Shown piece after piece: positions 35,340-52,446 of a stretch of 64,000 nucleotides of DNA. The DNA comes from Candidatus Sigynarchaeum calidifontis (GTDB lineage Archaea; Asgardarchaeota; Lokiarchaeia; Sigyniarchaeales; Sigyniarchaeaceae), in NCBI GenBank assembly GCA_030587475.2, contig JAUQYZ020000035.1, positions 1 through 64,000 of the forward strand, written 5' to 3'. The notes under the pieces are model-generated. The model was not told the DNA's origin. It saw nothing but the letters and a program-made list of their open reading frames with translations, and did no database searches. Position numbers and translations under genes: made by a program. Position 1 is the first letter of the stretch. Each line of letters begins with the position of its first letter.

Positions 35340-36191
35340 TTGGTAGAACACCCCATTATCGAAATCAACGATGTCACATTCACGTACCAGAACATGAATG
35401 ATCAACCCATCCTGAACAAGGTTAACTTGCATTTTTTTCCAGGAACAGTTACTATCATCTGCGGGCCAACGGGAAGCGGCAAGACCACGCTCGTGCGACT
35501 GCTCAACGGACTCATTCCCCATTTCTACGAAGGCATCATGAAAGGAAATGTCCTCGTCGACGGGATCAACACCAAGGACACATCAACGGCCAAGCTTGCT
35601 CAAATCGTGGGCATGGTGTTTCAAAATCCGGAAAACCAGCTCGTTTCATCATCATGTGAGCGAGAGATTGCTTTTGGGCCTGAAAACCTTGGGATCCCGC
35701 GGTCTGAAATCAGCGAGCGCGTCGAGTACGTAATCCAACTGCTTGGTTTGCAAGAAATCCGCGATAATTCCCCGAACGAGTTATCTGGCGGTCAAAAGCA
35801 GAAGGTTGCAATAGCTGCAGCGCTAGCATTGAAGCCGAAGGTGCTGGTGTTCGATGAGCCAACATCAAACCTCGATCCCGAGTCAATCTCAAAGCTCGGC
35901 GGGATTATCGAAATGATCAAGACGCAGCTCAACTCGACGATCATCATCGTGGAGCACCGGTTAGAACCGTTCTTGAACATTGCCACGCACATTGCTTGCA
36001 TGAAAGATGGAACTGTAATTCTATATGATACGACGGATAATGTCGTCCATAATAATGCTTTTTACCAGTTAGGCGTGCAAGTACCGGTCTTGTTGAAAAT
36101 ATTTCACCAATTATATAATGATGGCATTTATTCAGGCTCATTTCCACTTTGCACAGAAAAAAGCTTATCCGTTTTGAGAGAGCTCTTGTGA
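35340..36191 (+). CDS. ECF transporter ATPase A
   Basis: GPTGSGKT, FQNPENQ, LSGGQKQ, DEPT, EH; start approximate. Confidence 0.9.
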   Translation: MVEHPIIEINDVTFTYQNMNDQPILNKVNLHFFPGTVTIICGPTGSGKTTLVRLLNGLIPHFYEGIMKGNVLVDGINTKDTSTAKLAQIVGMVFQNPENQLVSSSCEREIAFGPENLGIPRSEISERVEYVIQLLGLQEIRDNSPNELSGGQKQKVAIAAALALKPKVLVFDEPTSNLDPESISKLGGIIEMIKTQLNSTIIIVEHRLEPFLNIATHIACMKDGTVILYDTTDNVVHNNAFYQLGVQVPVLLKIFHQLYNDGIYSGSFPLCTEKSLSVLRELL

Positions 36192-36207
36192 TGGAAGTGA
36201 TAAACAC

Positions 36208-37050
36208 GTGATCGAGTTCCAATCGGTTTCCTATCAGTACCCGGATGGGCCGGTGGCGCTGCACGACGTGAACATCCGTATCGATGATGGATCTTTTGTT
36301 GCCGTGCTCGGTGAGAACGGGGCAGGAAAGACCACGTTCGTAAAATGCATCAACGGGCTACTCAAACCAACTACGGGCGAAGTCTTGGTTGATGGAATGT
36401 CGACTAAAAACGCAAGTGTGGCTCAAATGGCAAAGAAAGTTGGTCTCGTGTTTCAGAACTCGGACAACCAGCTTTTTGCAACTTCCGTGAAGGAGGAACT
36501 GGATTTTTCCCTTCGGAATGTTGGTATCATGGAAAAAGATCGGTCTTCCATCATCGAAAAAACCCTAGCGACCATGAACCTCTTGCACTTAAAGGAAAAG
36601 TCCCCGTTCTTGCTCAGTGGTGGAGAGCGGAAGCGAGTCGCGTTTGCATCGCTTATATGCATGGATCAGCAAGTTTTCATTGCAGATGAACCGACGCAAG
36701 GGCAAGATGAAATCCAGCGAGAGAACATCGAACAAATCTTGCGCCGTATGCAAGAGCAGAAAAAAACCGTCATTATAATTACACACGATCTGGATTTCAT
36801 CACCCGTCTTGCCGATCGCGTGGTAATATTCGAAAAAGGCCGGATCAGTCTTGATGGTCCGGTCGAGGACGTTTTCAAATTTCCTGCAATTTTAAAGCTC
36901 GTTCACTTGCAACCGACGCAAGAACTCGCGTTAAAATGGATGTTAAAGGAAAAGGATCCAGAAATCCAGATGCTATGCAAGATGGATCAAAAGACATTAA
37001 TTTCGACAATCGTTGAAAAAATAAAAGCGAGACGAGAGCATGTCCATTAA
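36208..37050 (+). CDS. ECF transporter ATPase A'
   Basis: GENGAGKT, SPFLLSGGE, DEPT, THD. Confidence 0.9.
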   Translation: MIEFQSVSYQYPDGPVALHDVNIRIDDGSFVAVLGENGAGKTTFVKCINGLLKPTTGEVLVDGMSTKNASVAQMAKKVGLVFQNSDNQLFATSVKEELDFSLRNVGIMEKDRSSIIEKTLATMNLLHLKEKSPFLLSGGERKRVAFASLICMDQQVFIADEPTQGQDEIQRENIEQILRRMQEQKKTVIIITHDLDFITRLADRVVIFEKGRISLDGPVEDVFKFPAILKLVHLQPTQELALKWMLKEKDPEIQMLCKMDQKTLISTIVEKIKARREHVH

Positions 37051-37819
37051 TTTATTGAAAGGTTTCGAGTTCAAGAAAAAAGATACCTTCGTGCATCGTC
37101 TTGACCCGCGGTCGAAGCTGGTCATCACGATAACCTACTCGATTCTGGCCCTGAGCTTTTCTACCATTCTCCCCCTCGCGTTTTTCATTGCAACCCTCCT
37201 TCCCATCCTCGCGGGAGGGAAAATTGTTCGGAGATGGCTCGTCTCCTTGAAAGGACTCTCTTTCATCATAATCTTCATTATCGTGCTCAATACATTACTC
37301 ACCACGCTTGATTTTGCCATATCCATGTGCCTTCGCATCATCCTCCTCGTCTCCTCCTTTTCTGTCTTTTTCATGACCGTCCATCCTGACGAGCTCGCGT
37401 TGAGTTTGCTTGCCATGAAAGTGCCCTTCTCGTTCACATTCACGCTATCGCTCGCCACCAGGTTTGTTCCAACGCTCGCGGCAGAGGCCCAAAACATCAT
37501 CGACGCGCAGCGAAGCCGTGGCTTGGAGCTTGAAAAGGGCAATTTACTTGTCCGGGTGAAAAACATGGTGCCGATTCTCATCCCCTTGATCATCAACTCT
37601 ATAAAGCGAGCGTTTTCGATCGCCGAGGCACTGGAGAGCAAGGCATTCGGAGCCATGAAAACACGCACCAATTATTATGAACTCAAGATGCGGAAATGGG
37701 ACTACGCGGTCATAGTTATCATGATACTGTTTATCGTGGGGTTTTTCGTGCTTTATTTCGGGAATTACTTGCCTGGCGTGTTCTACTTCACGCTGCGCGT
37801 GATATTGCCGAACTTGTGA
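37040..37819 (+). CDS. ECF transmembrane component T
   Basis: HRLDPRSK, RFVP, AQRSRG, ALESKAF. Confidence 0.9.
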   Translation: MSINLLKGFEFKKKDTFVHRLDPRSKLVITITYSILALSFSTILPLAFFIATLLPILAGGKIVRRWLVSLKGLSFIIIFIIVLNTLLTTLDFAISMCLRIILLVSSFSVFFMTVHPDELALSLLAMKVPFSFTFTLSLATRFVPTLAAEAQNIIDAQRSRGLELEKGNLLVRVKNMVPILIPLIINSIKRAFSIAEALESKAFGAMKTRTNYYELKMRKWDYAVIVIMILFIVGFFVLYFGNYLPGVFYFTLRVILPNL

Positions 37820-37977
37820 GGAAACGAAGGCACGAAACGATTGCCAAGGTGGAAAGCTCCGGTCCTTGTCCAATTGATTGCTTGTCATCGACAAGCCTCA
37901 GCTCGGCATTATCTTGCCTTGACGTCTTAACACATCCGACTAGAAATAACGATGAACGATAAAAAAGTAAGAAGATT

Positions 37978-38787
37978 TTAGATATACAAGACCTTTTCCT
38001 TTTCTTCCTTGGTATTAAAGGTCTGTATGGCGTCGAGTTCAGTTTCGAGTTCCTTGCGCTTCTTTTCGAGGCTCTTGCTCATGTTTTCGACGTTTCTCCT
38101 CGAGAAATCGATGTTCAAGGAAAAATTGAACAATGAGTCGAGCACCTTGATTAATTTCATCGACGCGTTTAGATCGGTCATGTTTTCATTGACCAAGGCC
38201 ATGTTGCTCGTTTCCGAGAGCAAAACGATGCCATCGACACCATATTTAATCGAAGCTATGGATGGTATCAATCCATTTGCACCAATAATGACTCCTTTTG
38301 AAATTTCATGACAAATTCTTTTTTCGACCAATTTTTTAACATATTTTGCGGTCGTGGCCGTCACGAAAATTTTAGGATCGCTAATGTGATTGGATTGAAC
38401 CGGATACCCTCCAAGCGAAACAATAAACTTGATATTAAACCGCATGAGCAGCTGGACCACGTGATCCGAGAGCTCGTAAATTTCTCTTGGATTCATCGGT
38501 TGCGCGTCGGCCGTGATGAAAAAAAGATCGTGCTGCTTGTTTTCATCCTTCCAGAAGAACACTTCCGTCTTTGGCGTCGAAATGAGGCTCTGATCGATAA
38601 TTACACCTGCTGGATAACCGTAGAACAATATATCGTACACTTTCGTAGCTCCAAAAAGGCCAATTAGCTGATCTATTGCGAACTTGCCGATATCGGCCAC
38701 TCCAGGCATGCCAATGATGGCAACGGGATCGTGCAAGTCGGAACGCGATTCGATCTTTGAAACGACAATGTCTTGGATTGGTTTCAT
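37978..38787 (-). CDS. PAC2-family proteasome assembly chaperone
   Basis: GMPGVADIG, DAQP, LGGY, IIGANGL, ET. Confidence 0.85.
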   Translation of the reverse strand: MKPIQDIVVSKIESRSDLHDPVAIIGMPGVADIGKFAIDQLIGLFGATKVYDILFYGYPAGVIIDQSLISTPKTEVFFWKDENKQHDLFFITADAQPMNPREIYELSDHVVQLLMRFNIKFIVSLGGYPVQSNHISDPKIFVTATTAKYVKKLVEKRICHEISKGVIIGANGLIPSIASIKYGVDGIVLLSETSNMALVNENMTDLNASMKLIKVLDSLFNFSLNIDFSRRNVENMSKSLEKKRKELETELDAIQTFNTKEEKEKVLYI

Positions 38788-39035
38788 GTGGCTGTCTCCG
38801 TGTTGGATTTCAGTATCCTTTTCCATAATCGAGATATTAAGCCAAGGTATGATGGAAGAAATGTTTGTACCGGCTTCCAAGGATTCCCTGGATATGCCCG
38901 TGGGAATATCACGACGAAAGACTGGCGGATATATTCTTTGCCGAGTTTATTGGAGAATGGCCATTATGGATTTGAGGTAAGAGAAGATTAATGCAATGAG
39001 CTCTTAAGGGACGTGTAAAAGGCGTGTTATTTTTC

Positions 39036-39656
39036 ATGAAAGGTGCCACTGAAACCGTGGAATTCAATTGCTTGCGATGTGGATCTTGCTGTCATGAATA
39101 TGAATTTGCCGACGGGATGAATTTCAAGAGGATTCCCGTGTTTCCAGAGGAATTGGATGAATTGGAGGTATTTGCCAAGGATAATGGAATATTGATCAAA
39201 TTTCTTGAAGATGTCGTCTTTCCTGACATTAAAAACAAAAGGATCATCGTGGTGACTTACAGGATCGTCCTCGAGGGCAGTGAAAAGTGTTGTCCTTTTT
39301 TTCAGGCATCTAGAGGCTGTTTGGTGAACGAGATAAAGCCACTTGCTTGTAAGGCATACCCCCTTGCCCAAAAGAAGATTGATGCCTATACGCAGGAGAT
39401 GTACATCGACCCCTATTGCCGGTTCATCGAGGGCAACGAGATACAAGTTAAAAATGCGGCGATTGAAAACATTAAAAGCTTATTTGCTTCGGAACTTGAT
39501 TTTTCGGCTCGGTTGATGAAGAAAAACCAAGAAATCATTTTAAAACTTAAGCAATTAACCGTTGAAGGCAAGATTCTCATCCCTGAAAAAGTCTCCACGA
39601 ATGATATGGATATTTGGCTCCGCACTTGGGATCGAGCATACATCAAAGATTATTAG
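39036..39656 (+). CDS. YkgJ-family Cys-cluster (CxxCxxCC) protein
   Basis: FNCLRCGSCC, CPF, C...KPLACKAYP. Confidence 0.85.
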   Translation: MKGATETVEFNCLRCGSCCHEYEFADGMNFKRIPVFPEELDELEVFAKDNGILIKFLEDVVFPDIKNKRIIVVTYRIVLEGSEKCCPFFQASRGCLVNEIKPLACKAYPLAQKKIDAYTQEMYIDPYCRFIEGNEIQVKNAAIENIKSLFASELDFSARLMKKNQEIILKLKQLTVEGKILIPEKVSTNDMDIWLRTWDRAYIKDY

Positions 39657-39677
39657 GTCAAACGAGCATTATTTTGT

Positions 39678-40925
39678 TCATATGCTTGCCAGCGCATCAC
39701 TTGGTTCGATGTTTTGGAGCATCACTGCTTCGCAAAAACTTTCAAGCGCCGGGGCAAGACGCAGCGAGAACTCGGACAGTTCTTCCCGATCAATAAAAAA
39801 AAACTTGAAAATCCTTTTAGTGATATATCGTTTCAAGAGCGAATAAAGTCCATCGACAGAAAGCTCGTGGATGATTGCGAAGATCCTGGTACCGTCATCG
39901 AAAATCGAGTTTCGTGAATCAAGGAATTTGCCGTCATTGCCTTCCCGATCAACCATGGCCTGGAAAGCGTAGATAGATGCATCATCTATAACCCCTTGGG
40001 AAAGGGGTATGATGGATCCATGATGGTCATCATTCAAGCTTTCCGAGACACTGACAATCCTTGCATCATTTTTTTTCGAAGAATTCTCCGCGACAATCTC
40101 ACCTTTGGATATAAACATGTTCGTGGCTTTTTTTTCTAAAACAAGATACTTCGAGAAGAAATCCAAAGCGTCCACCGCGACATAGCTTCCTTGACCTTTA
40201 ATCATCCGTTTGATGAACAGCTTTACGATATCCTTCTTCTGTACCTGGCTTTCTTTCAGTATCACGTTGAATTCATTTGTCTCTGTTAACCTATCATAAA
40301 TTTCATTAAAAAAGTAAATTTTCTTTTCAGCAAAAGTAAAAAAGGCATCGATATAAGCTTGTTTGTTTTCATATTTAAACAAAAGATTTATATCGGCATT
40401 TAACTTCATCTTTAAAGCGAGATCATCAATGAGCTTGAAAAAATTTGGAAATATTTGGAGATTATGTAAGTTGATTTCAAAAAAGGCGATATTTTGCAAA
40501 ATTTCCTTCGATGAAGGGTCATACAAACAAATCCGATTCTTGGTCATCTTGATTAAAAAATTGTTGATTCCATAGAAAGGCAAGAAATATAGATCTTTAT
40601 ATGGATTTAATATCCAATTGACCACGTCTCCTAGTTTTGAATCAATTTCGTGGAATGCAGATTCTACATTATCGATCTTATAAAAATTGCCATTCCACCT
40701 AGCATTAACCGAAAATAAATGGATTTTTTCTTTTCCATCATAATGAATATTCAAGCAAAAATACAAATCGTGTAAAAGAACTATCTTTTCATTTATTATT
40801 TGAATAATTTTATTTATACTTGACATGTCATTAATTTTATATATCTTGAGAAACATAAAATCGTCTTTTTCATGATACACGAAGACATCCTTGAGGAGAT
40901 CGACTTTGAATGGGTTTAATTTCAT
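39678..40925 (-). CDS. AT-rich hypothetical protein
   Basis: Long ORF of about 415 aa with I/F/K/N-biased composition; no motif recognised. Confidence 0.65.
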   Translation of the reverse strand: MKLNPFKVDLLKDVFVYHEKDDFMFLKIYKINDMSSINKIIQIINEKIVLLHDLYFCLNIHYDGKEKIHLFSVNARWNGNFYKIDNVESAFHEIDSKLGDVVNWILNPYKDLYFLPFYGINNFLIKMTKNRICLYDPSSKEILQNIAFFEINLHNLQIFPNFFKLIDDLALKMKLNADINLLFKYENKQAYIDAFFTFAEKKIYFFNEIYDRLTETNEFNVILKESQVQKKDIVKLFIKRMIKGQGSYVAVDALDFFSKYLVLEKKATNMFISKGEIVAENSSKKNDARIVSVSESLNDDHHGSIIPLSQGVIDDASIYAFQAMVDREGNDGKFLDSRNSIFDDGTRIFAIIHELSVDGLYSLLKRYITKRIFKFFFIDREELSEFSLRLAPALESFCEAVMLQNIEPSDALASI

Positions 40926-41067
40926 AATGCAAATCACGTTCGCGATTCAACTTTTCTGGTTTGCGAAGATTTTTATCATCCGATTTTTTTTGTAAGCCCC
41001 TTCTGAAGCCCCAAGTCTCGACTGAAAAGTTATTATGATGCCGCGCGATTATTTTGATTGTCTAAAT

Positions 41068-41144
41068 GGGGTTATGGTCTAGACTGGTATGATTCCTGGT
41101 TCGGGACCAGGCGATCCCGAGTTCAAATCTCGGTAACCCCACCA
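41068..41144 (+). tRNA. tRNA-Pro(CGG), CCA encoded
   Basis: Acceptor GGGGTTA/TAACCCC-ACCA; anticodon arm CCTGG-TTCGGGA-CCAGG; TTCAAAT. Confidence 0.95.
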
Positions 41145-41347
41145 TGTTTTTTTTTCTGGCAATGAGAGTGATATGAAGGGATCAAACGTCAAATATTTTC
41201 GGTTTTTACGAGCAAGACATTTGAATTTTTTATTGGCCGGTTCCCACCATTACCATGATCTTGATATCCGCTTGTGCCGGGTAATTCATATAATACATTG
41301 ATTTACTTGAGAACTAGAGAAGATCAGATCAACTAGGATGCATAAAT

Positions 41348-43162
41348 ATGGCTCACGATAAAGCATGGATCGGATATTATGATGATTCCACGGGAAATCG
41401 TTTCGAAATAGATCCCAATTTACTTGTAAAACATGGTGGTATTTTCGGTTCCACTGGTTCTGGAAAGACCGTTCTCGGAAAGATACTCATTGAGGAAATG
41501 GCCCTGCAGAAAGTTCCGTCAATCGTTATCGACCCTCAAGGGGATTTAGCGAGCCTTATTATTCCAAATGATGATGAGACACTCAAGGAGAAGGGCGTGG
41601 ATCTGGACCGGAAAGAAGAGTTCTTTGCAACGACGGAGATCCGAGTTTTTACTCCGAGCAGTAACAAGGGTATACCGATATCCCTCAATCCCGTGATTTT
41701 TCCCCAATTCAACATCGACGAGGTCGAGGTCGTGCGCATCCTCGATAACGTAGCCAACACTCTCGTGGAACTCCTTGTTAAGCTTGTTAAATACCCACCA
41801 GCAAAGGTAATTCAATCAAAATCTGTCATATATACCATTCTCCTCGAAAATTGGAATCGGAAAAAAACGGTCGGCGATCTAAAGCATCTTTCAAGCCTTA
41901 TGCAAGAAGATGACGATTTATACCAAAAATTTATGAACAAGAGTGAAAAGGACAAGCTCGTTATCGCGATGAACAATTTGCTCATCGGTTCGACTGGATT
42001 GCTCTTCTCCGGGCAAGCAAAACTGGATATCGGAAGCTTGCTTGAACCGAAGGATGATAAAACGCCCGTGAATGTTTTTTTCTTGAAATCCTTGCTGAAC
42101 GAGAATGAAAAGCACTTATTCGTTTCTATCTTGATCCAAGCCTTATATTCTTGGATGATCCAGCAAGGATCCTCGCCAACGGCTCGATGCTTTTTCTACA
42201 TGGACGAGATGGCACCTTTTATGCCTGCAGGTATGAGCGCACCGCCTGGCAAAGCAATGTTACTCTTGCTCCTCCGGCAGGCGCGAAAATATGGGATTTC
42301 TTGCGTGCTTGCATCCCAAAGCCCGAAGGACATCGACTATCACGGCCTTGACCAAATCAACTCGTTTTTTTTCGGGCGCATCTTGTCTGACCAATCCCAG
42401 CGAGTAATCAAGAATTTACTGGACACGAAGATGAACCCGGATCGAGTCGACGATATCCTGGGCAAGATCACGACGCTGACAACAGGCCAGTTCATTGGTT
42501 TCTTGCCAGATATGAAAGAACAGCCTACCCCTCAATTCAGGACCCGTTACTTGTTTTCTAAACATAACACGCTAACGGAGGCAGATTTAAAAAAGATTTT
42601 TCACCCGGACGTCCCAGAAGATGATATACCAGTGGATTCGGGTGTAATAACGAAAGTTCAGTCTGAAGGGGAAATTCAAATCGAAGCTCAAGAAGGCCCG
42701 AGCATTATCAGCATATCTAGCTCATCGGAGGGAAGTGACACGGCGACTATCCCAAGCAGTACGACGGCGCCGGGATATTACCGGTTCAAGCAGCTTAAAG
42801 AAAAAGCTATGGAAGACCTTCTGGAAAGAACGATCGAATATGATTTTTTTGAAAAAATAACCAGCACGATAAAAATCCGGAAGTTCATAAATTTGACGAA
42901 TTATAGCCCCGCGATGATTGGATACGTTAAAAAAATGATGGCCAAGTTTGAATACGAGTCGATATTCGAGGGAACATCGCCGAACGGGTTGCTCGTGAAC
43001 ATCTTCCAGCATGACAACGCCAATATCATCGTTGCCATTATCATTGCGGAAAATGTAATTAAAGTAGGTCTCTTTGGCACATTTACGAGCAATCAGCTCA
43101 AAGGCGATATCGAAAAATTGCTTGATGGTATTTCAGAGATATGTAAGAAAATAATTGTATAA
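41348..43162 (+). CDS. HerA/FtsK-superfamily ATPase (DUF87/DUF853-like) with C-terminal extension
   Basis: KHGGIFGSTGSGKT, IDPQGD, YMDE, RQARKYG, ASQSP. Confidence 0.88.
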   Translation: MAHDKAWIGYYDDSTGNRFEIDPNLLVKHGGIFGSTGSGKTVLGKILIEEMALQKVPSIVIDPQGDLASLIIPNDDETLKEKGVDLDRKEEFFATTEIRVFTPSSNKGIPISLNPVIFPQFNIDEVEVVRILDNVANTLVELLVKLVKYPPAKVIQSKSVIYTILLENWNRKKTVGDLKHLSSLMQEDDDLYQKFMNKSEKDKLVIAMNNLLIGSTGLLFSGQAKLDIGSLLEPKDDKTPVNVFFLKSLLNENEKHLFVSILIQALYSWMIQQGSSPTARCFFYMDEMAPFMPAGMSAPPGKAMLLLLLRQARKYGISCVLASQSPKDIDYHGLDQINSFFFGRILSDQSQRVIKNLLDTKMNPDRVDDILGKITTLTTGQFIGFLPDMKEQPTPQFRTRYLFSKHNTLTEADLKKIFHPDVPEDDIPVDSGVITKVQSEGEIQIEAQEGPSIISISSSSEGSDTATIPSSTTAPGYYRFKQLKEKAMEDLLERTIEYDFFEKITSTIKIRKFINLTNYSPAMIGYVKKMMAKFEYESIFEGTSPNGLLVNIFQHDNANIIVAIIIAENVIKVGLFGTFTSNQLKGDIEKLLDGISEICKKIIV

Positions 43163-43190
43163 GCTTTTTTTTCATTCGGTTGTGCTCGGC

Positions 43191-43661
43191 TCAAGAGAAT
43201 TGGAATTTAAAATCTTGATTGCACATGATCTTAAAAAAGGATGTTATTTCATCGAAAAACATCTTGAACTTTCGGAAGAATTCTGGTTTCCTTTCGGTGT
43301 TTACCTTTACATGCACGTGCACGTACCTACCATCTGTTGTCGTCTTTATGTGCTCTATCAAGTCTGTGTCAAATATTGCTGAGAGCATTTTAATGAGGCC
43401 ATCGTCAATGGGAATGAAAAACGTGATCTTTTCCAGAATCAAGCCAAGAACGACTTTTAATTCCGTTTTATGCGGCAACCGGTCATAATCTCGAGATGTC
43501 AATAAGATAAAGACGGTTTTCGTTAGAAGAACGAGATCATAGATGTCCATTTTCAGTGCGTTCTGCAAATAATTGTACATTAACAGCTTTTGGTTATCAA
43601 AACGTCGTATCGCTTGGATGTATACCTTTGTTGGATTCAATTCCCCTGGATATCCGGCCAT
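43191..43661 (-). CDS. Hypothetical protein
   Basis: ORF with G-rich SD (AGGGGGG) and TATA-like sequence upstream. Confidence 0.6.
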   Translation of the reverse strand: MAGYPGELNPTKVYIQAIRRFDNQKLLMYNYLQNALKMDIYDLVLLTKTVFILLTSRDYDRLPHKTELKVVLGLILEKITFFIPIDDGLIKMLSAIFDTDLIEHIKTTTDGRYVHVHVKVNTERKPEFFRKFKMFFDEITSFFKIMCNQDFKFQFS

Positions 43662-43818
43662 ACCCCCCTATCGATTTCAAGTATTTATACAACCTCGTTA
43701 ATAATGGCTCTGACTCCACCTTCCATCCACGTCGTGGTCTTGGCAAATAAATCGATAGATATAAATCAATCAAGCCTTTCAATCACCAAGAACCAGAAAT
43801 CTAGGTGAAATTGATTCA

Positions 43819-44346
43819 ATGCCTTTCATTTTCAACATGATCATCTCAACACCACGAAATTTCGAAACTGATGGGCTAGCTGAACTAGATTTTCTTGTCC
43901 ATCAGATATTTCCCGAAAACAAGCTCAATTACGGAAAAACCATCGTCACGGGCCTGATCTGGGGGAACTTGATAGGTGTAGATCCAGTCTTGGCCGTCCA
44001 TCGCATCAAGGATTTTGTTCGTGAAAAGGGCTTCCCCCTTCAATATCTCCTTAAATTCGTTCCCATACAAAAAGTGTTGTTGACCGATTTCGACGAGATA
44101 GAGAAGTATATCTTGAGCCAAATCGATCAAATCCGTGACGATGAGAAATACAAAGTCGTCGTGAACAAGAGACGCATTCATTATGAAAAAATCGAGATCA
44201 TCGAAAAGATTACTAAAAACATTCATAAAATAGTTGATCTCGAGCATCCGGATAAAATCATCAGGCTTGAAATCATTGGAAAGTACACGGGTATTTCGAT
44301 AATCAAGGAAAGTGACGTTTTCAGCACGGGTAAGAAGGTCATCTAG
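43819..44346 (+). CDS. THUMP-domain protein
   Basis: KFVPIQ, YKVVVNKR, VDLEHPDKIIRLEIIG. Confidence 0.85.
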   Translation: MPFIFNMIISTPRNFETDGLAELDFLVHQIFPENKLNYGKTIVTGLIWGNLIGVDPVLAVHRIKDFVREKGFPLQYLLKFVPIQKVLLTDFDEIEKYILSQIDQIRDDEKYKVVVNKRRIHYEKIEIIEKITKNIHKIVDLEHPDKIIRLEIIGKYTGISIIKESDVFSTGKKVI

Positions 44347-44984
44347 TTCTTTTGTTGCATGGTCAATGAAAAAATAGCCATTCTCGCGGCTGCTACCTTG
44401 ATAAGCCAGTCCGCCACGCCATATCTCTCAGACAACATTTCAACACGAGGTTCGTCATGACCAACCCAGGCATGGAAAAGTGCCCCATCCATTAAAAACG
44501 GCGTGTATTGCGGTTGAATCGGTTGGTATGAGAAATGGTTATTAAACGCGGAAATTATATCCGTGATGTCTTGAACATTCTCGGATTCATAAACGATGAT
44601 CATTACCACGCCATCATTTACCTCACGAGGCTTGTGGAATGAATCAGGTATTATATATTGCTTGATCACGCCTATTTGATTCGTGCTAAAGATATGCATG
44701 AGAATATTTATTACCGGATTTTCACTAACAATTATTCCATGCACAAGTTTATCTTTAAACGCGTGAAAAACGCCGTTCACAACGATATCTTCTTGAAATA
44801 CCAGTTTTGCTTCAAGAAAGAGTGTAATCACGCCGTTGAATTCGCTCTTGCTGGTGCTAAAGTCGATTAAACTCATCTTGCCGTCCTTCGACACGACATG
44901 ATCGATATAATGAAAGACCACTGCAATGTTCTTGCCAGCGATATTGAACTCGTGATGATTTCTCCCGGGCACGTGCCAAGTCAA
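44343..44984 (-). CDS. Divergent KEOPS Cgi121-like protein
   Basis: LEAKLV...VFHAF...SENPVINILMHIFSTNQIG resembles the Cgi121 core. Confidence 0.5.
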   Translation of the reverse strand: MTWHVPGRNHHEFNIAGKNIAVVFHYIDHVVSKDGKMSLIDFSTSKSEFNGVITLFLEAKLVFQEDIVVNGVFHAFKDKLVHGIIVSENPVINILMHIFSTNQIGVIKQYIIPDSFHKPREVNDGVVMIIVYESENVQDITDIISAFNNHFSYQPIQPQYTPFLMDGALFHAWVGHDEPRVEMLSERYGVADWLIKVAAARMAIFSLTMQQKN

Positions 44985-45030
44985 GGGGGCAAGAATAAAA
45001 TAGGTTTCAGCTTATCAAGATCGATACAAG

Positions 45031-45564
45031 TTGTTTGATTCGCGAACCCTTTTCGAGAATGTTGACTGCCCTAGTTGCGGAAAGCCGGCCCTCAGTCAAA
45101 AAGTTCACTTCTATAAGGAGCCCCGGTCAAAGGATGAAATGTTGTTTTTCATCACGTTGTGTGAGGCCTGTGCGTTCAAGAAAACGGAGATCATGCCCGT
45201 CGCGCCTAGTACTCATGCGAAATCCAATCATTATCGTATTTCTATCAAAGATCCAAAGGATTTAGAAATTAAAATATTTCGTGCTTCGACTGGTTCCATC
45301 GAAATCCCGGAGTTGGAGATCAAGCTCGAGCCTGGACCCTCGGCCGAATTCTTTATTACGAACATAGAGCGTATTCTCTTGAAATTCAAGGAAAGTTGTC
45401 AATTTCTCCTCAGAAATGATCCCGAACCGTCCGCGAAAGAAATTCTTGAAAAGCGGATTCGGGAGCTCGATGAATGCCTCGCGGTGAAGCGAGAATTCAC
45501 TGTGTTGATAGATGATCCGGAAGGATTTAGCTATGTCCTCCCTCCTAATCAGAACCTTGCATGA
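45031..45564 (+). CDS. ZPR1 zinc-finger protein
   Basis: CPSCG...CEAC, IEIPELEIKLEPGP, ITNIE, IDDPEG. Confidence 0.9.
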   Translation: MFDSRTLFENVDCPSCGKPALSQKVHFYKEPRSKDEMLFFITLCEACAFKKTEIMPVAPSTHAKSNHYRISIKDPKDLEIKIFRASTGSIEIPELEIKLEPGPSAEFFITNIERILLKFKESCQFLLRNDPEPSAKEILEKRIRELDECLAVKREFTVLIDDPEGFSYVLPPNQNLA

Positions 45565-45712
45565 CCACTCTATTGCTTTTTACTGCGCGCGATGTCCAAA
45601 GCCCGCCATCCTAGCAGAAACCTTATTGTACCAGCGAGATTCATGAGATCAATTTCTCACGTGTGTAAGCATGCACGTGAATATCAACTCATTACCATGT
45701 TGTGAACGACTT

Positions 45713-46939
45713 ATGCCCGGAAAGAAGCGTGTCGGCCTCCTCACCGGGGGCGGAGATGCCCCTGGCTTGAATGCCGTTATTTATGGCGCATTACTACGTG
45801 CCTACGAAGCAGGGAACATAGAAATCGTCGGGATCAAGAAGGGGTGGAAGCTTTTCGATATGCAAAAGGAAAAAATTACACCCGACGTGATCGACAAGTA
45901 TCTGGTTGCCCTGGATATCGCTGAACTTGATGATTTGCAGCTGAAAGGGGGTACCATTTTATATTCAACGCGTACGAACCCGTTTAAGGACGTGTTGAAA
46001 GTCAAGGATGAAGCGGAGCGGGAAAAGATTCGCGAGAAGGTGGGAAAGGACCTGGCCGAGAAAATGAAATTGCTAAACCTTGATGCGTTGATCGCCGTTG
46101 GTGGCGATGACACGCTGGGCGTGTCAGCAGCCATGTTCAAGTACGGCCAAGCGAGGGTGGTTGGATGCCCGAAAACGATAGATAATGACCTTGCCGGAAC
46201 AGATTTCACCTTCGGCTTTTTCAGCGGCGCACAGCTTGCAAGCAATACGCTTGAAAACCTCACGACGACCGCGAAATCACATCAACGTATCTTCGTTGTC
46301 GAGGTTATGGGGCGAGATGCCGGCTGGCTCACCTTGTATAGCGGTTTGTCCGCGGGTTCTGATATAATCCTGCTTCCGGAAACACCTTTTGATATGGAAA
46401 AAGATATAATAGATTTGCTCAAGGAGCGCGTCAAGGCGGGATATGATTATCATATCATCGCTTGTGCCGAGGGCGCGTATCCCACTCAAAAATCGATCGA
46501 AACCCACTTCAAGACCATCACGAAGGAAACCATCGAAAAACTGCCAAAGGATGCATTCGGGAACCCGAACCTCGCTTCCTTGAACATTGCAAGCGTGCTC
46601 GAGAAAGAATTGAACAAGCGCGAGGATTTGAAGAAATTCTTTGAAAAATATGACTGCGAATACGAAGTGCGCTCGGTTGTTCTAGGACACACCATGCGCG
46701 CTGGCCCGCCAAATGTATTCGACCGCGTTCTAGGATTACGATTTGGTTGGCATGCCATGGGCTATGTGATCGAGGAGAAATTCGGGAAAATGACATCGTT
46801 ACAAGGCTCGAAGATCGTCCCTACAGACCTTATTCAAGGATCCACGAAGAAACTAATAGATCCTGCATCTGATCTGGTTACTATTAAAAACGCAATGTGC
46901 CACGTCAAACACAAAGCCAAGCAGAAGATATCCCAATAA
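45713..46939 (+). CDS. Phosphofructokinase, predicted PPi-dependent
   Basis: LTGGGDAPGLN, GGDDT, PKTIDND (Asp104/Lys124 type), EVMGR. Confidence 0.92.
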   Translation: MPGKKRVGLLTGGGDAPGLNAVIYGALLRAYEAGNIEIVGIKKGWKLFDMQKEKITPDVIDKYLVALDIAELDDLQLKGGTILYSTRTNPFKDVLKVKDEAEREKIREKVGKDLAEKMKLLNLDALIAVGGDDTLGVSAAMFKYGQARVVGCPKTIDNDLAGTDFTFGFFSGAQLASNTLENLTTTAKSHQRIFVVEVMGRDAGWLTLYSGLSAGSDIILLPETPFDMEKDIIDLLKERVKAGYDYHIIACAEGAYPTQKSIETHFKTITKETIEKLPKDAFGNPNLASLNIASVLEKELNKREDLKKFFEKYDCEYEVRSVVLGHTMRAGPPNVFDRVLGLRFGWHAMGYVIEEKFGKMTSLQGSKIVPTDLIQGSTKKLIDPASDLVTIKNAMCHVKHKAKQKISQ

Positions 46940-47448
46940 TTTTATTCGTTTTCCTTTTAATACTTTACCTCGATGCATTTTAAGCATGCGTGCTGCTTTT
47001 CACGCATCACGGTTTTCTGTTCTTTTTCATTGCCGGTCTCGAATCGCTGCCAGATAAACGATCAAAGCCAATTTTTTTCAGAGTTTGCAAGATTTTATTT
47101 CAATGCGTGGTCGAATGTGCCCGCGCTATACTCGCGATCTCGCGTGATTCCTGCCCCAATTCTACTTGTAGCGCCTCGCATCGCTGGTTATGCGAGTGCC
47201 GGAGTCAAAGTGCCTCGCGAACACTTTATACATGCGAGATGTGGCATTCCCACCTTTCTGAACCGCCGTGAATTGTCCAATTCGGGGACGCGGCATCGAT
47301 CAAGCATTGCAAGATACCACGAACCAAAGTAAAAGCACGTTCTTGATGTGCGAGATTGCCCTTCTGTAGACTTAGTTTATTTGGTGTTGTTTAAATAGGC
47401 AGGTGGGATCTGATATCGATCCGAAGAAAAACCCCGTCGTGATCGTGG

Positions 47449-48435
47449 ATGGAACTTGTCGAACAAGTGAAAACGCACCTTGATTCAATCAAAGCGATAA
47501 ACGGCGTTGAAAATGTCGTTTTAACCCAAAGGGATGGAAATCCAATAGCATCATCTGGTGTATGGCTGTCCAAAAACGAGATTTTTCATGTTTCTGCTGC
47601 CACGAGTGCAATCTATAATGTTGGGTTGTCATTGCACGGGGTATGGTTGAAATATATGGTTATTGAGGGCCCGAAAGCAAAAATTTTAATCGCTCCTTTG
47701 CACGATGGCGCATTTGCCATTCAGCAGACTTCGGGTTCGACTATGGAATGGGCAGAATATTTCATAGCTCTTACTACGTTATCAAACGTGAATCTCGGAA
47801 GCGTATTTATCAAGACACAAACAACATTGAATAATATAAATGATTTAATCTTAAAATCTAACTGCAATTTCAAACCACCACTTCGGGAATTCAATGAAAA
47901 GCAAATCGAATACATCCTTAATAAATTCAATTCCAAGCAGGAAAACGACGAGATCAATTCTGTAACATCGTTTGATACGACCCTGGGATTCGAAACGTTC
48001 CAGAAATGCGAGGAAATCTTGTGGAGTTTTAATAAATGCGTTCCAGATCTGATTTACTCGTGTGTCTCGTTCAAGGGCGGGTATATCGTGAATTCAATAC
48101 AACCTCGTTCCGGTTTCAACTTGACACCCGATGCCGAGACTGCAATGTCCTTCTCGCTATACGATACCGCATCGAGATATGCTTGGCTGCTTAAAAAAAT
48201 GAATACCAGTTCCATTTTCCTCGATTGCAATCATTATTTTCATTTCATAATGGGGTTCGACGCCGGCATCTTCAGTTCCTTCATTTACAAGAACGAGCAG
48301 AAAATAGGCTTTATCCGATTGCTGTTACCGAAATATTTAGACTTGATCCAGAGGGTTCTTGATGAAAAAACTCGGCATCAACAGCCACCCGAGTTGGTGC
48401 ACGAAAAGATGTTCAGCACGCTGTTGATTCGTTAG
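47449..48435 (+). CDS. Tandem roadblock/LC7 (MglB-like) domain protein
   Basis: N-terminal GVENVVLTQRDGNPIAS...NLGSVF; second copy CVSFKGGYIV...KIGFIRL. Confidence 0.8.
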   Translation: MELVEQVKTHLDSIKAINGVENVVLTQRDGNPIASSGVWLSKNEIFHVSAATSAIYNVGLSLHGVWLKYMVIEGPKAKILIAPLHDGAFAIQQTSGSTMEWAEYFIALTTLSNVNLGSVFIKTQTTLNNINDLILKSNCNFKPPLREFNEKQIEYILNKFNSKQENDEINSVTSFDTTLGFETFQKCEEILWSFNKCVPDLIYSCVSFKGGYIVNSIQPRSGFNLTPDAETAMSFSLYDTASRYAWLLKKMNTSSIFLDCNHYFHFIMGFDAGIFSSFIYKNEQKIGFIRLLLPKYLDLIQRVLDEKTRHQQPPELVHEKMFSTLLIR

Positions 48436-48446
48436 GTGAACATGCT

Positions 48447-49349
48447 ATGAACTTGATGGACCTATTGTCGCTTTTCCCGCCGAATGATTTTGCACTTGTC
48501 TTACGTTGTGTTTTCGACCGGATCCCCGTGTTAGTTGGTGGAAAAGACAAGGATTTTCTTGACGATCTTCTTATCGAATTATGCGATTTTATGCCCATGC
48601 GGAAAGAAGTAATCTTTGGCACGGACTTTCTCGAAAGAGAAGAACACGATGTCATAATTCAGGAAGAACAGATGAATTATGATAACCACCGCCTCATTTT
48701 TCGTTCGCCAGTAAATTCTGGGGACATGATCCTTCGGAATATCGAAAACATAAAAGGCTGGATAATCGGGTTGTGCATGAACGGGGACGTTGATGCATTC
48801 TATGAAAAGGCTTCACGCATCCGGAAGAAAAGCCCTGTTTCTTTATTTATCAAGTTCAATGAAACAAATCAATTGGAATTCGTGAAATTATATGCTGAAG
48901 ATAATAAGAAACTCGATACCAGCTTGGAAAAAACGATCGTCAAGAAGACAATTTCTCAAACGGAACACGCGCTGGAACGAATCAAGCGTGTTTTGGATAA
49001 AAAAATACAAGGAAATAGCGATATCAACTCGTCAATCATCGCGAGCCTTGTCGATCTCGCTCAAGAGGAATCTATCATCAAGGATAACGTTTTCAAGAAA
49101 GAAGTCCTGGAATTTTATCAAGCATCTCGACGCGGCTTGGCCTTGTTAACACGGCTGAACTTTTTAAACCAATTCCAACCAGTTAAGATAGGGAGAAAAA
49201 CGTTTTTCGATGCTATCTCATATGACGACGTGAGCACGCCACGCTTCTTGGATTTCATTCAAGCAGAATGGGGCGAGTGTTTCCATGGATTAATTGATGA
49301 CAGCCGTCTTTCAGTTCTCGGCGATCACCTCGATAGCCTTTGGGGGTAA
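48447..49349 (+). CDS. Hypothetical protein with DENN-core-like N-terminus
   Basis: LLSLFPPNDFALVLRCVFDRIPVLVGGKDKDFLDDLLIELCDFMP...WIIGL pattern. Confidence 0.5.
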   Translation: MNLMDLLSLFPPNDFALVLRCVFDRIPVLVGGKDKDFLDDLLIELCDFMPMRKEVIFGTDFLEREEHDVIIQEEQMNYDNHRLIFRSPVNSGDMILRNIENIKGWIIGLCMNGDVDAFYEKASRIRKKSPVSLFIKFNETNQLEFVKLYAEDNKKLDTSLEKTIVKKTISQTEHALERIKRVLDKKIQGNSDINSSIIASLVDLAQEESIIKDNVFKKEVLEFYQASRRGLALLTRLNFLNQFQPVKIGRKTFFDAISYDDVSTPRFLDFIQAEWGECFHGLIDDSRLSVLGDHLDSLWG

Positions 49350-49354
49350 CCACC

Positions 49355-49930
49355 ATGATGATCAACTATAATGGAAGGGTAGTACAAACAAAAATCGTTT
49401 ATTATGGCCCGGCAATGTCGGGAAAGACTACGAGTTTGAAATCATTGTTCAAATTGATGAACAAAGACTCGGACCTGAAATCAATCGAAACCACTACTGG
49501 AAGAACGCTTTTTTTCGATTTTGGAACGCTAGACTTTAAAGGTATAGAGTGGACGATAAAAATCTACTTGTATTCAACCACAGGCCAAGATTTTTATCAA
49601 GGCACGAGGCCTGCGACGCTGTGCGGCGTTGATGGCGTCATATTTATCGTGGATTCACAACGAAGTTTACTTCAATACAACAAAAACTCGTGGAATGAAT
49701 TACGTCGGTTCTTTTCCGACAAGATCAAGCAAATTCCCATCGTTATTTGCATGAACAAGTATGATTTCGAGGACAAAATTTCGGATGACTTGTTGCGTGA
49801 CGAGTTGAAAATCTCAAAGAATCAAAACATCAAGATCATCCCTTCCGTCGCAATTGCGGGTATCGGTGTCAAAGAGGCATTTTGCGAAGTCATGAGCCAT
49901 ATATTCCCAAATTTTAAGTTGGAGATCTAA
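49355..49930 (+). CDS. mglA: MglA-family small GTPase
   Basis: INY...KIVYYGPAMSGKTT, GRTLFFDF, LYSTTGQ, GVDGVIFIVDSQ, NKYD, SVA. Confidence 0.9.
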   Translation: MMINYNGRVVQTKIVYYGPAMSGKTTSLKSLFKLMNKDSDLKSIETTTGRTLFFDFGTLDFKGIEWTIKIYLYSTTGQDFYQGTRPATLCGVDGVIFIVDSQRSLLQYNKNSWNELRRFFSDKIKQIPIVICMNKYDFEDKISDDLLRDELKISKNQNIKIIPSVAIAGIGVKEAFCEVMSHIFPNFKLEI

Positions 49931-49949
49931 CAAAATTCGAGGTGAACGC

Positions 49950-50150
49950 ATGAAAAAAATGATGCGCATCCTATTTGGAAGGGATAAATTGTTTTACATG
50001 GAGTCGAATTTCGGGCCTGTTGTCGAGGAGGGCTTGATCATCGGCGTTTCTATCGCGGCACTCTTGATACTAATTTCCGTTATCCTGGCCATCCTGGACA
50101 ATACTAAAAACCTATTAAATAACTTGACAAACGGCACGATCTTCGGATAG
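49950..50150 (+). CDS. Small single-TM protein, Flp/class III prepilin-like
   Basis: GGTGA SD; NFGPVVEEGLIIGVSIAALLILISVILAI followed by an amphipathic helix. Confidence 0.5.
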   Translation: MKKMMRILFGRDKLFYMESNFGPVVEEGLIIGVSIAALLILISVILAILDNTKNLLNNLTNGTIFG

Positions 50151-50158
50151 CTGCGCAA

Positions 50159-50623
50159 TCAAATCTCGTGGATAAAGAATTTCTCAACGCTATCGAGATA
50201 AATAATCTGAGTCTCCACGATATCCGGATTTGTTTGGAAGTTCTTCAAAACCGTGCCAAATGTTTCCTTGTTATCAGTTACGAACAAGGCTATAATGGTT
50301 TTCTTGTCTTCTGAGATGGCCAGGAAACCGATTCTCTTGTCCACTTTTAATTTATTAACTAGATCCTTGGCTCGTTTCTCACTTTCCTCGAAAATATGTG
50401 GCCCAATTTTACAAATGATGAGTGCCTTGTGCTTTAGGCCAACTTTATCCAAGTCCAGTTCTATGGTGAATCTTTTTATGATATTTTGTTCCTTAAGTTT
50501 GTTCACGCGAAAATGGATCGTGGTATCGGCAATGTTCGTCGCCTTGCTAAGCTGGATGAATGGACTTCTTGAATTCTTTAAAAGCTCGTTCAAGATGGAT
50601 AAATCTTTTTCACGCGTTTTCAA
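50159..50623 (-). CDS. Lrp/AsnC transcriptional regulator
   Basis: DLSILNELLKNSRSPF...TIHFRVNKLKEQNIIKRFTI. Confidence 0.9.
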   Translation of the reverse strand: MKTREKDLSILNELLKNSRSPFIQLSKATNIADTTIHFRVNKLKEQNIIKRFTIELDLDKVGLKHKALIICKIGPHIFEESEKRAKDLVNKLKVDKRIGFLAISEDKKTIIALFVTDNKETFGTVLKNFQTNPDIVETQIIYLDSVEKFFIHEI

Positions 50624-50644
50624 GGATTAGATCCACACGCCGGT

Positions 50645-50788
50645 TCATTCATTTTCTTCCTTGCCAGTAGAAAGACCGATGTAGACAAGGATTATTATGA
50701 ACAATACAATTCCCAAGGTCACGATGATGTATTCGAATTGCTGGAGATTGATCTGGAGAAAGTTCAAGAGACGAGCGATCGGGGACAT
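50645..50788 (-). CDS. Small single-TM protein
   Basis: 47 aa with one hydrophobic helix; upstream of the Lrp gene. Confidence 0.45.
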   Translation of the reverse strand: MSPIARLLNFLQINLQQFEYIIVTLGIVLFIIILVYIGLSTGKEENE

Positions 50789-50925
50789 GATCCGTGGCAC
50801 CTTCATAAAATCAAAGTATAATGCTCTTAAAAATTTATGGGATGCTCGTTTTTGCAATCATAAAGCCAGTTATTGCTCTGGGTTGCATCTCGTGTGAACG
50901 GTTGCTTTTTAACAAAAGATGGGCA

Positions 50926-51327
50926 TTAATTTCGATCGCGTTCAAGTAGATCTTTTAAATAATCCAGGTACACGCCATCTTCCTTGTATATCGTTAAAAA
51001 CCGGTTGGATCTCTGGCAGATGATTTGCGTAATGACGTGATAACAACAGATTTCATTTTTCTTCGAGACAGCATTGAAGTAAAAATCGTGGCATGAGCAA
51101 AAATGGGGCGGAAGAAGCAAATACTCGTCCATTTTCCCGACGATCAGCCAAAATTGCGAACCCGATGGAAGAAAAACATATTTATACGTATTTATTCCAC
51201 GGATGCTTTCCAAGACCTTATTCCATTTCTGATCGAGGACTTTGAAATACTGCTCCTTGGTGGCTTGATGCATACGAGCGGAATTACAGTATGCTTCAAG
51301 GATTTCATAATAAGCTCTTTTTTCCAT
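50926..51327 (-). CDS. SWIM zinc-finger protein
   Basis: VG...EYL...CSCHDF...CYH. Confidence 0.8.
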   Translation of the reverse strand: MEKRAYYEILEAYCNSARMHQATKEQYFKVLDQKWNKVLESIRGINTYKYVFLPSGSQFWLIVGKMDEYLLLPPHFCSCHDFYFNAVSKKNEICCYHVITQIICQRSNRFLTIYKEDGVYLDYLKDLLERDRN

Positions 51328-51525
51328 GTGTTTTTCTTGCCATGTCGTGTTTTCAAGCTTGAATCATAGCAGGACCGGAAACCAAACTGATGTTTCACTC
51401 GTGATTTTCAAGATTGCCCGTTCTTCAATTCACTATTGATGAGCCCGATAATAAACAAATCATGTAATAAGATTCGTGAAAGGAGAAGAACCGGGGATAG
51501 CACGTTATACAAGACCGGATGTTGT

Positions 51526-52446
51526 TCATTGGTTACATTGAATTCTTTTTTTGACCAGTTCCCAATTCATATCCACCCAGTCCTGGATCTTTTGAATATC
51601 TTGATCGGTGGCTTGTGAAAAGCGTCCTTGCTTTTTGATATATTCGCGAACAGGAATCCTGTTCTCCTTGTCGAGATATCGCTTCGAATTTTTCTTCAGC
51701 GAGAACACGCCATTTTCCTGTTCCCACATGATCCATATCCCCGATTTGATCGCGAGCCGCCCGATCTCGATCGTCTCGGCGGAATCATAACGCCAACCCG
51801 GGGGGCACGGTGAGAGAATATGCACGAACCTCGTGCCCTTTATCTCCTTGATTTTCTTGAAGGTGGAGAAAACATCTTGCGGATCAGTGCCGTTAACGAC
51901 GCCAACATAGGGGATGTCATGAGCCGCGACGATCCTGGCGATATCCTTTTTCATTTCTTTCTTTCCAAATGGCGTGGTCGTGGTGATCGCCGCGAAAGGC
52001 GTCGAACCGCTTCGCTGCGTGCCCGTATTGGCGTATATCTCGTTATCATAACACGCGTAGATGAAATTGGTTCCCCGTTCAATTGCACCACTCAATGCCT
52101 GGACACCGATATCCACGGTACCGCCGTCTCCGGCCCAGGTCATGACGGTGATATCCTTCTTGCCAAGAGCTTCATATCCCGCGACAATACCCGCCGCAGC
52201 CGCTGCACCCGCTGCAAATGCCATGTTTATGAACGGGACATTGGGCGATGCAGCTGGCCACAGGCCGATATAGACATTCGTGCAACTTGCAGGGGCTACG
52301 ACCACGGTTTTGGGCCCAAGCGCTTTTAAAGCCCACCGTAGAGCGAGCTCGCTCGTGCATCCTGCGCACGCGGAATTGCCACAACATAAGAATTCATCCG
52401 AGTATTCTTCACTCAACATCTCTTTCATGGACATGTTCTTCATCAC
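51526..52446 (-). CDS. porB: Pyruvate/2-oxoacid:ferredoxin oxidoreductase beta subunit
   Basis: ACAGC, GDGGT, DNEIYANTGTQRS, SPCPPGW. Confidence 0.92.
   Translation of the reverse strand: MMKNMSMKEMLSEEYSDEFLCCGNSACAGCTSELALRWALKALGPKTVVVAPASCTNVYIGLWPAASPNVPFINMAFAAGAAAAAGIVAGYEALGKKDITVMTWAGDGGTVDIGVQALSGAIERGTNFIYACYDNEIYANTGTQRSGSTPFAAITTTTPFGKKEMKKDIARIVAAHDIPYVGVVNGTDPQDVFSTFKKIKEIKGTRFVHILSPCPPGWRYDSAETIEIGRLAIKSGIWIMWEQENGVFSLKKNSKRYLDKENRIPVREYIKKQGRFSQATDQDIQKIQDWVDMNWELVKKRIQCNQ

Follow-up and report, generated by a model that had tools for sequence, protein, structure and literature searches.

The 64,000-nucleotide (nt) window analyzed here, positions 1 to 64,000 of contig JAUQYZ020000035.1 from Candidatus Sigynarchaeum calidifontis, carries three consecutive genes on its + strand, which we call A, B, and C in their order along the DNA. 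We found that these genes are likely to form an Asgard roadblock-DENN-small GTPase operon that encodes a three-protein molecular switch, and our comparisons across genomes support a self-contained operon conserved in Asgard archaea. Such an operon has been reported. In section 10 and Fig. 5b, Liu et al. (bioRxiv 10.1101/2020.10.19.343400; Nature 2021) describe a Roadblock-small GTPase-DENN operon in most Asgard archaea, distinguish its GTPase from Rag, and propose the module as a GTPase regulator analogous to folliculin (FLCN). The A-B-C locus matches that description in its three components, its broad Asgard conservation, and its proposed regulation of a non-Rag GTPase, and we take it to be a member of the same operon. 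The finding is therefore not new, and the module put forward in a preliminary description of this window, made from the sequence alone, had already been published by Liu et al. There, however, the GTPase is labeled “Rab-like” and the roadblock protein “LAMTOR1-like,” whereas here the GTPase belongs to the MglA family and the roadblock protein is a tandem. Our refinements are thus an MglA-type GTPase, a tandem roadblock protein, a longin-less DENN protein, and a divergent adjacency, at about 340 nt, to 16S rRNA genes in a Lokiarchaeial order. No biochemical characterization of the trio was found in the literature searched.

The genes, the predicted domains of their products, and a candidate promoter are as follows.

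47390-47397, + strand: TTTAAATA, archaeal TATA-box-like element read from the sequence, about 55 nt 5' of the A start; candidate operon promoter
47449-48435, + strand: gene A, tandem-roadblock protein of 328 amino acids (aa); open reading frame (ORF)
47449-47859, + strand: roadblock domain 1 of A, aa 1-137; alignment A2, secondary structure of the AlphaFold2 (AF2) model, and VIA match
47977-48378, + strand: roadblock domain 2 of A, aa 177-310; VIA and Foldseek matches
48447-49349, + strand: gene B, predicted longin-less DENN protein of 300 aa; ORF
48447-48911, + strand: cDENN-like alpha/beta domain of B, about aa 1-155; AF2 model and fold match
48912-49346, + strand: helical dDENN-like domain of B, about aa 156-300; AF2 model and fold match
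49355-49930, + strand: gene C, MglA-family small GTPase of 191 aa; ORF

The preliminary description had reported three coupled genes separated by 11 and 5 bp, and its coordinates and junctions were correct. At the A/B junction, a TAG stop is followed by 11 nt containing a Shine-Dalgarno (SD)-like GGTGA and then by the ATG of B. At the B/C junction, a TAA stop and 5 nt, preceded by an SD-like GGGGGT, lead to the ATG of C. On the basis of these 11- and 5-nt gaps and SD-like motifs, A, B, and C are translationally coupled. An in-frame TTG at 49340 lies upstream of the C ATG (49355) and is an unlikely start, since the first codon of the orthologues corresponds to ATG 49355. The source metagenome-assembled genome (MAG) is an Asgard assembly of 4.99 Mb in 269 contigs with 89% completeness, and the closest homologue of A, at 92% identity, comes from a Sigynarchaeota archaeon.

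By its sequence, C is clearly an MglA-family GTPase rather than a “Rab-like” one, because a wide gap in phmmer E values coincides with the family hallmarks of an intrinsic Arg, an Asp-less G3 motif, and a catalytic Gln. The top PDB matches of C by phmmer were MglA from Thermus thermophilus (3t12_A, E 4.3e-28) and from Myxococcus xanthus (about 1e-27), both at 100-101 bits, whereas the next best was a Thorarchaeota Rab (E 1.2e-7, 35 bits) and Arf and Rab proteins scored 1e-5 or worse. Pfam matches were to Arf, Ras, and Roc. The motif KIVYYGPAMSGKTT is present, and the P-loop reads KIVYYGPxxSGKTT (GPAMSGKTT); switch I, GRTLFFDF, matches the MglA RTLFFDF residue for residue and contains an intrinsic Arg50 (MglA Arg53); and the G3 motif, STTGQ (TVPGQ in MglA), lacks the canonical Asp and keeps the catalytic Gln78. 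NKxD is present. The first, switch I, and G3 motifs had all been named as MglA hallmarks from the sequence, and with the phmmer match to MglA (E 4e-28) that claim is upheld. An estimate made by eye on the alignment puts C at about 40% identity to bacterial MglA over 180 aa. Asgard archaea are known to have MglA groups (10.1101/2024.02.28.582541; PMC10933270).

These residues are also conserved within the family. Alignment A3 comprised 19 operon-encoded orthologues of C and two MglA-like paralogues from the same genome, L002 (G000:C247:55513-56028) and L003 (G000:C203:5589-6035). Arg50 is kept in 19/19 orthologues and in L002 and is Ser in L003; every sequence keeps G77, Q78, NKxD, and the G5 Ala, and the P-loop GPAMSGKTT varies little or not at all. 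The G3 motif of the orthologues reads S/T-A-T-G-Q. The two paralogues are about 30% identical to C in this alignment (32-33% by tblastn), and neither has a Pfam-detectable roadblock neighbor within about 1.5 kb.

For gene A, the modeled structure and its fold matches support a single chain with two roadblock domains. Pfam reached domain 1 only, where Robl_LC7 (PF03259) matched aa 8-89 at E 3.5e-4 and 20.7 bits, below the 23-bit cut-off. The family holds >365 homologues, many of which have a precomputed PF03259 match or a roadblock or MglB name. From an alignment of 40 sequences, AF2 gave a model (predicted local distance difference test [pLDDT] score, 79.9; predicted template modeling [pTM] score, 0.78) with two complete alpha-beta-beta-alpha-beta-beta-beta-alpha modules, one at residues 4-137 and the other at 181-310; the linker between them is poorly predicted and includes a conserved FKPPLR motif. 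The pTM of this model suggests that the two domains hold a defined mutual arrangement. In VIA searches, domain 1 matched a Streptomyces Roadblock/LC7 protein (3leq_A; Z 12.4, root mean square deviation [rmsd] 1.8, 101 aa), and domain 2 matched Roadblock3 of MK-D1 (9jue_D; Z 17.9, rmsd 1.6 Å, 119 aa) and MglB (3t1r_A, Z 17.7, 131 aa; M. xanthus 6hjm_A, Z 16.7). Foldseek matched A to MglB, LAMTOR2, and Asgard roadblocks at E values of about 1e-6 to 1e-5. The two roadblock domains that had been read from the sequence were thus recovered both as AF2 modules and as fold matches to each half. In alignment A2, domain 1 is by far the more conserved of the two, with a GVENVVLTQRDGNPI..GVWLSK block in which G19, Q27, D29, G30, P32, G37, and W39 are invariant. 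The beta1-beta2 hairpin of this domain reads R/K28-D29-G30-x-P32, with G-x-P rather than G-P, a motif common to roadblock proteins. The DGxP hairpin probably resembles the Pfam Robl_LC7 consensus.

B itself had no meaningful match in Pfam, NCBIfam, or PDB sequences, and its family, collected by exhaustive phmmer, falls into 77 clusters at 50% identity, nearly all of about 300 aa. The AF2 model of B (pLDDT 91.6, pTM 0.87) has an N-terminal alpha/beta domain of six strands and then a helical C-terminal domain, and it supports a predicted cDENN-plus-dDENN fold closest to the C-terminal domain of folliculin. In an exhaustive VIA-align search with this model, ranks 1-6 were all DENN-family chains, and a second run agreed. 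Ranks 1-2 were FLCN 347-558 (3v42_B and 6nzd_H; Z 13.1, 187/199 residues, 3.6 Å, model residues 1-277), and the Z scores of other DENN proteins were 13.0 for DENND10, 10.9 for SMCR8, 9.8 for C9orf72, and 9.6 for DENND1A. The DENN-family matches in ranks 1-6 span residues 1-277/286 of the model, so that both cDENN and dDENN are covered. The DENN/folliculin-like pattern that the preliminary description had seen by eye in B was thus supported by the fold search. Among the 44 family sequences of alignment A1, R25, P27, and R52 are invariant, Folliculin_C (PF16692) gave a weak match in 3/44 members (best E 4.8e-4), and DENN (PF02141) gave one in a single member (E 0.093). Folliculin_C was the only Pfam family matched by more than one B member at E below 1e-3. 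The same alignment shows no conserved N-terminal extension. Because the fold match begins at residue 1, B would be a cDENN-plus-dDENN core without a longin (u-DENN) domain and not the tripartite module. To our knowledge, the eukaryotic DENN core is always preceded by a fused longin domain.

Next, we examined the conservation of the operon, using 49 foreign loci fetched around B and 80 loci retrieved with the A alignment. The genes follow the order A-B-C on one strand in 48/49 and 75/80 of these loci, respectively (tblastn), and such recurrence argues that the arrangement is not due to chance. This agrees with the self-contained prokaryotic module that had been proposed, for which synteny in Asgard genomes had been a suggested check. 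The arrangement is conserved across several families of the phylum, with intergenic distances of a few nt and often down to 4-nt overlaps. Of the 301 genomes sampled from the phylum, 165 yielded B and 168 yielded A (about 55% each), and the presence and absence of the two genes by family are nearly identical. Counts for B and A were 57/68 and 56/68 in f2, 74/76 and 76/76 in f10, 15/19 and 18/19 in f15, and 4/4 and 4/4 in both f6 and f18; neither gene was found in f8 (0/28), f25 (0/21), f17 (0/11), or f30 (0/11). B usually gives one match per genome, and the operon has a single DENN gene. Homologues of A and B occur in MAGs labeled Promethearchaeota, Lokiarchaeota, Thor-, Hod-, Hermod-, Odin-, and Sigynarchaeota. 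Contigs with gene A also occur in MAGs labeled Bathyarchaeota, Nanopelagicaceae bacterium, and Patescibacteria (L055, L093/L108, and L116); B and C adjoin A in L093, L108, and L116, and these contigs are probably misbinned or mislabeled. As a separate observation, many genomes of one order (L006-L034, f2) carry a GTPase-like gene fragment about 700-900 nt 3' of C, convergent on the opposite strand, that aligns by tblastn to C residues 85-155 at 38-41% identity; the window has no such fragment at that position.

The closest known relatives of parts of this system are bacterial and eukaryotic. The MglA-MglB polarity switches of T. thermophilus and M. xanthus (3t12, 6izw) have the same switch-I Arg, Gln, and Asp-less G3 as C and, as here, a roadblock-fold partner in the same operon. 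The bacterial MglA/MglB operons lack a DENN gene, however, and nothing evident ties A-B-C to motility or pili. The MglB dimer is the GTPase-activating protein (GAP) of MglA, as seen in structures 3t12 and 6izw: the roadblock dimer binds one GTPase and positions the GTPase's own Arg and Gln. Whereas MglB is a homodimer of single-roadblock chains, the two roadblock domains of A have diverged from each other and share one chain. Among eukaryotic proteins, folliculin-FNIP, C9orf72-SMCR8, and DENND1 share the cDENN-plus-dDENN fold with B, which is genetically coupled to roadblock/longin-type domains and a small GTPase. In contrast, eukaryotic longin-plus-DENN regulators of Rag, Arf, and Rab carry the longin in the chain; B lacks one, and the roadblocks sit on the separate protein A. 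Folliculin-FNIP and C9orf72-SMCR8 are heterodimers of two longin-plus-DENN proteins, whereas A-B-C has one DENN protein. The putative client GTPase is MglA-type rather than Rag, Arf, or Rab, and sequence similarity between B and eukaryotic DENN proteins is at the detection limit. Ragulator (LAMTOR2/3 and 4/5) likewise uses paired roadblock domains as a GTPase platform, and the structural matches to A include LAMTOR chains. However, Ragulator consists of separate chains wrapped by LAMTOR1 and binds the roadblock domains of Rag, and C lacks such a domain at its C terminus. The binding of small GTPases by roadblock/longin platforms is established (PMC3521125).

Beyond the gene structure, domain folds, MglA-type motifs, strict synteny, and co-occurrence that we observed, we infer a complex, a GAP role for A, a guanine nucleotide exchange factor (GEF) or coregulator role for B, and a cellular output. 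In this model, C would be the switch GTPase, carrying its own catalytic Arg and Gln. A would be a covalently linked, asymmetric MglB-type dimer and, by analogy, most likely a 1:1 docking platform for C that stimulates C to hydrolyze GTP, as MglB stimulates MglA. B most likely binds A, C, or both. Together, A and B may recreate in trans the roadblock/longin-plus-DENN arrangement of folliculin-FNIP, C9orf72-SMCR8, and the DENND GEFs, and they would govern the remaining half of the nucleotide cycle, either exchange or the stabilizing or reading out of one nucleotide state. B might then promote nucleotide exchange, as DENND1 does, or act as a scaffold or cofactor in the manner of the FLCN-FNIP and C9orf72-SMCR8 DENN domains.

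Several observations weigh against parts of this interpretation, and they bear both on the activity of B and on its fold. The DENN domains of FLCN-FNIP and C9orf72-SMCR8 mainly dimerize and their longins catalyze; therefore, the DENN fold alone predicts no GEF activity. No A-B or B-C fusion was present among proteins of 649-2000 aa, which is weak evidence. RomRX, the proposed GEF of MglA, is reported in a 2026 paper (PMC13408092) to be an effector and not a GEF, a caution against taking each partner in an operon for a GEF. A and B could instead form a folliculin-FNIP-like GAP complex, in which the roadblock of A gives catalytic or positioning residues and the DENN domain of B is a scaffold with no GEF role. 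B is indeed structurally nearest to the folliculin DENN and not to that of the GEF DENND1; FLCN, SMCR8, and NPRL2 are GAPs whose longin catalysis takes place beside a GP motif in the beta1-beta2 hairpin (PMC12290439); and the corresponding hairpin of A domain 1 has its invariant D-G-x-P after R/K. However, this hairpin is a general feature of the roadblock family, the intrinsic Arg of C means that no Arg finger in trans is needed, and one DENN gene in the operon, usually with one per genome, leaves no folliculin-FNIP-like DENN-DENN heterodimer. We consider such a GAP complex unlikely. It is somewhat less probable still that B serves as an effector or adaptor, reading C-GTP toward some output without regulating the nucleotide cycle. 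MglA-type operon partners can be effectors, as the reinterpretation of RomRX in the 2026 paper indicates, and in the B model the conserved residues R25, P27, R52, R82, and W105 lie at the N-terminal ends of parallel strands, which would fit a protein-binding edge better than a catalytic pocket. Yet the operon comes with neither an output domain nor a membrane anchor, and no other gene is conserved beside it (a 66-aa ORF downstream of C is not conserved); all characterized DENN proteins act on the GTPase cycle.

The fold of B raises the remaining alternative, in which B is no DENN homologue but a degenerate P-loop NTPase (PilT/FlaI-like) that resembles DENN through shared topology only. The secretion ATPases GspE and FlaI match B at Z 9.1-10.0 over 183-184 residues, level with DENND1A/B, and the DENN call therefore rests on the margin of about 3 Z by which folliculin and DENND10 exceed them. 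In the first VIA-align ranking, these ATPases came after DENND1A, at Z 9.1-9.5. Foldseek alone found no match of the B model to the PDB below E 1e-3, and it ranked AAA+ and secretion ATPases highest, with template modeling (TM) scores below 0.3. In the fold check that had been suggested for B against DENN, FLCN, and C9orf72, it was the exhaustive VIA-align search that placed DENN proteins on top. A profile of alignment A1 found no DENN protein among PDB sequences and only a spurious helical ferritin match, and an ESM Atlas look-up of B was uninformative (Atlas model pLDDT 0.33, no feature match, TM at most 0.34). The cDENN domain has been described (PMC3521125) as a minimal P-loop-NTPase-like topology that lacks residues for binding nucleotide; the ATPase matches fit this view, and the likeness can be read in favor of either fold. 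Against an NTPase, the consensus of the 44 B sequences has no Walker A or B motif, the best matches of B are DENN proteins whose alignment also takes in the helical C-terminal half, Folliculin_C is the sole Pfam family with more than one B member, and Liu et al. independently assigned DENN by sequence-profile methods. We regard a degenerate NTPase as highly improbable and retain the cDENN-plus-dDENN reading of B.

The element TTTAAATA may be the operon promoter, as judged from its letters and position. A sigma-70 promoter and terminator scan gave nothing above shuffled background, although its bacterial model is not applicable to archaea, and no RNA genes were found in the 509-nt gap upstream of A. 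A 66-aa ORF at 49950-50150 (+), 19 nt 3' of C, encodes one hydrophobic helix. We rejected this membrane ORF as a fourth operon member since it has no homologue in 47 other C-bearing loci, and no analogous small hydrophobic ORF lies 3' of C in those loci; hydrophobic ORFs in L036, L037, and L041 have 116-145 aa and are unrelated to it. Farther along, a gene for an Lrp/AsnC-type transcription regulator (50159-50623, - strand; HTH_24, E 3.7e-11) is convergent to the operon. A tRNA-Pro(CGG) lies at 41068-41144. The G+C content of the window changes from about 0.50-0.57 (1-36000) to about 0.37-0.45 (36000-52000), and the shift near 36-40 kb could be a compositional boundary.

In a Lokiarchaeial order, the operon lies beside the 16S rRNA gene. 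In 72/80 of the loci retrieved with A (within L056-L134), the 16S gene lies on the strand opposite to A, with its 5' end 300-360 nt upstream of A, and in L041, L042, L049, L057, and L073, Rfam placed a 16S gene, full-length or cut, at a distance of 318-640 nt from A. L041 belongs to a single-contig 4.4-Mb genome (G213) in which the operon is present and the 16S 5' end is 642 nt from the A start. This head-to-head layout, with the operon and 16S about 300-640 nt apart, is that of families f2 and f3 of the order, and many further loci of the same order have it; no 16S was found within 2 kb of A in the more distant lineages checked. The source genome belongs to family f1, has a pyrophosphate (PPi)-phosphofructokinase gene upstream of A, and has no assembled 16S. 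The adjacency accounts for the many MAG contigs that break off just 5' of A and for the apparent absence of both A and B from some f2 genomes that are otherwise complete. The layout suggests that the operon and 16S share a divergent promoter region. We found no mention of this adjacency in the literature searched. An improbable extension would have the roadblock-DENN-MglA module coregulated with ribosome synthesis and serving as a switch for growth or nutrients; it would then be an archaeal precursor of the folliculin/Ragulator/Rag axis in which an MglA-type GTPase was the ancestral DENN client.

DENN and roadblock/longin regulators of GTPases underlie membrane traffic and nutrient signaling in eukaryotes, as in FLCN, C9orf72, and Ragulator. 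The A-B-C operon would offer a compact system, tractable in vitro, for the role of DENN domains before eukaryotes, an idea already published by Liu et al. The value of the present analysis is that it confirms the operon in an additional lineage and sharpens the annotation of its three genes.

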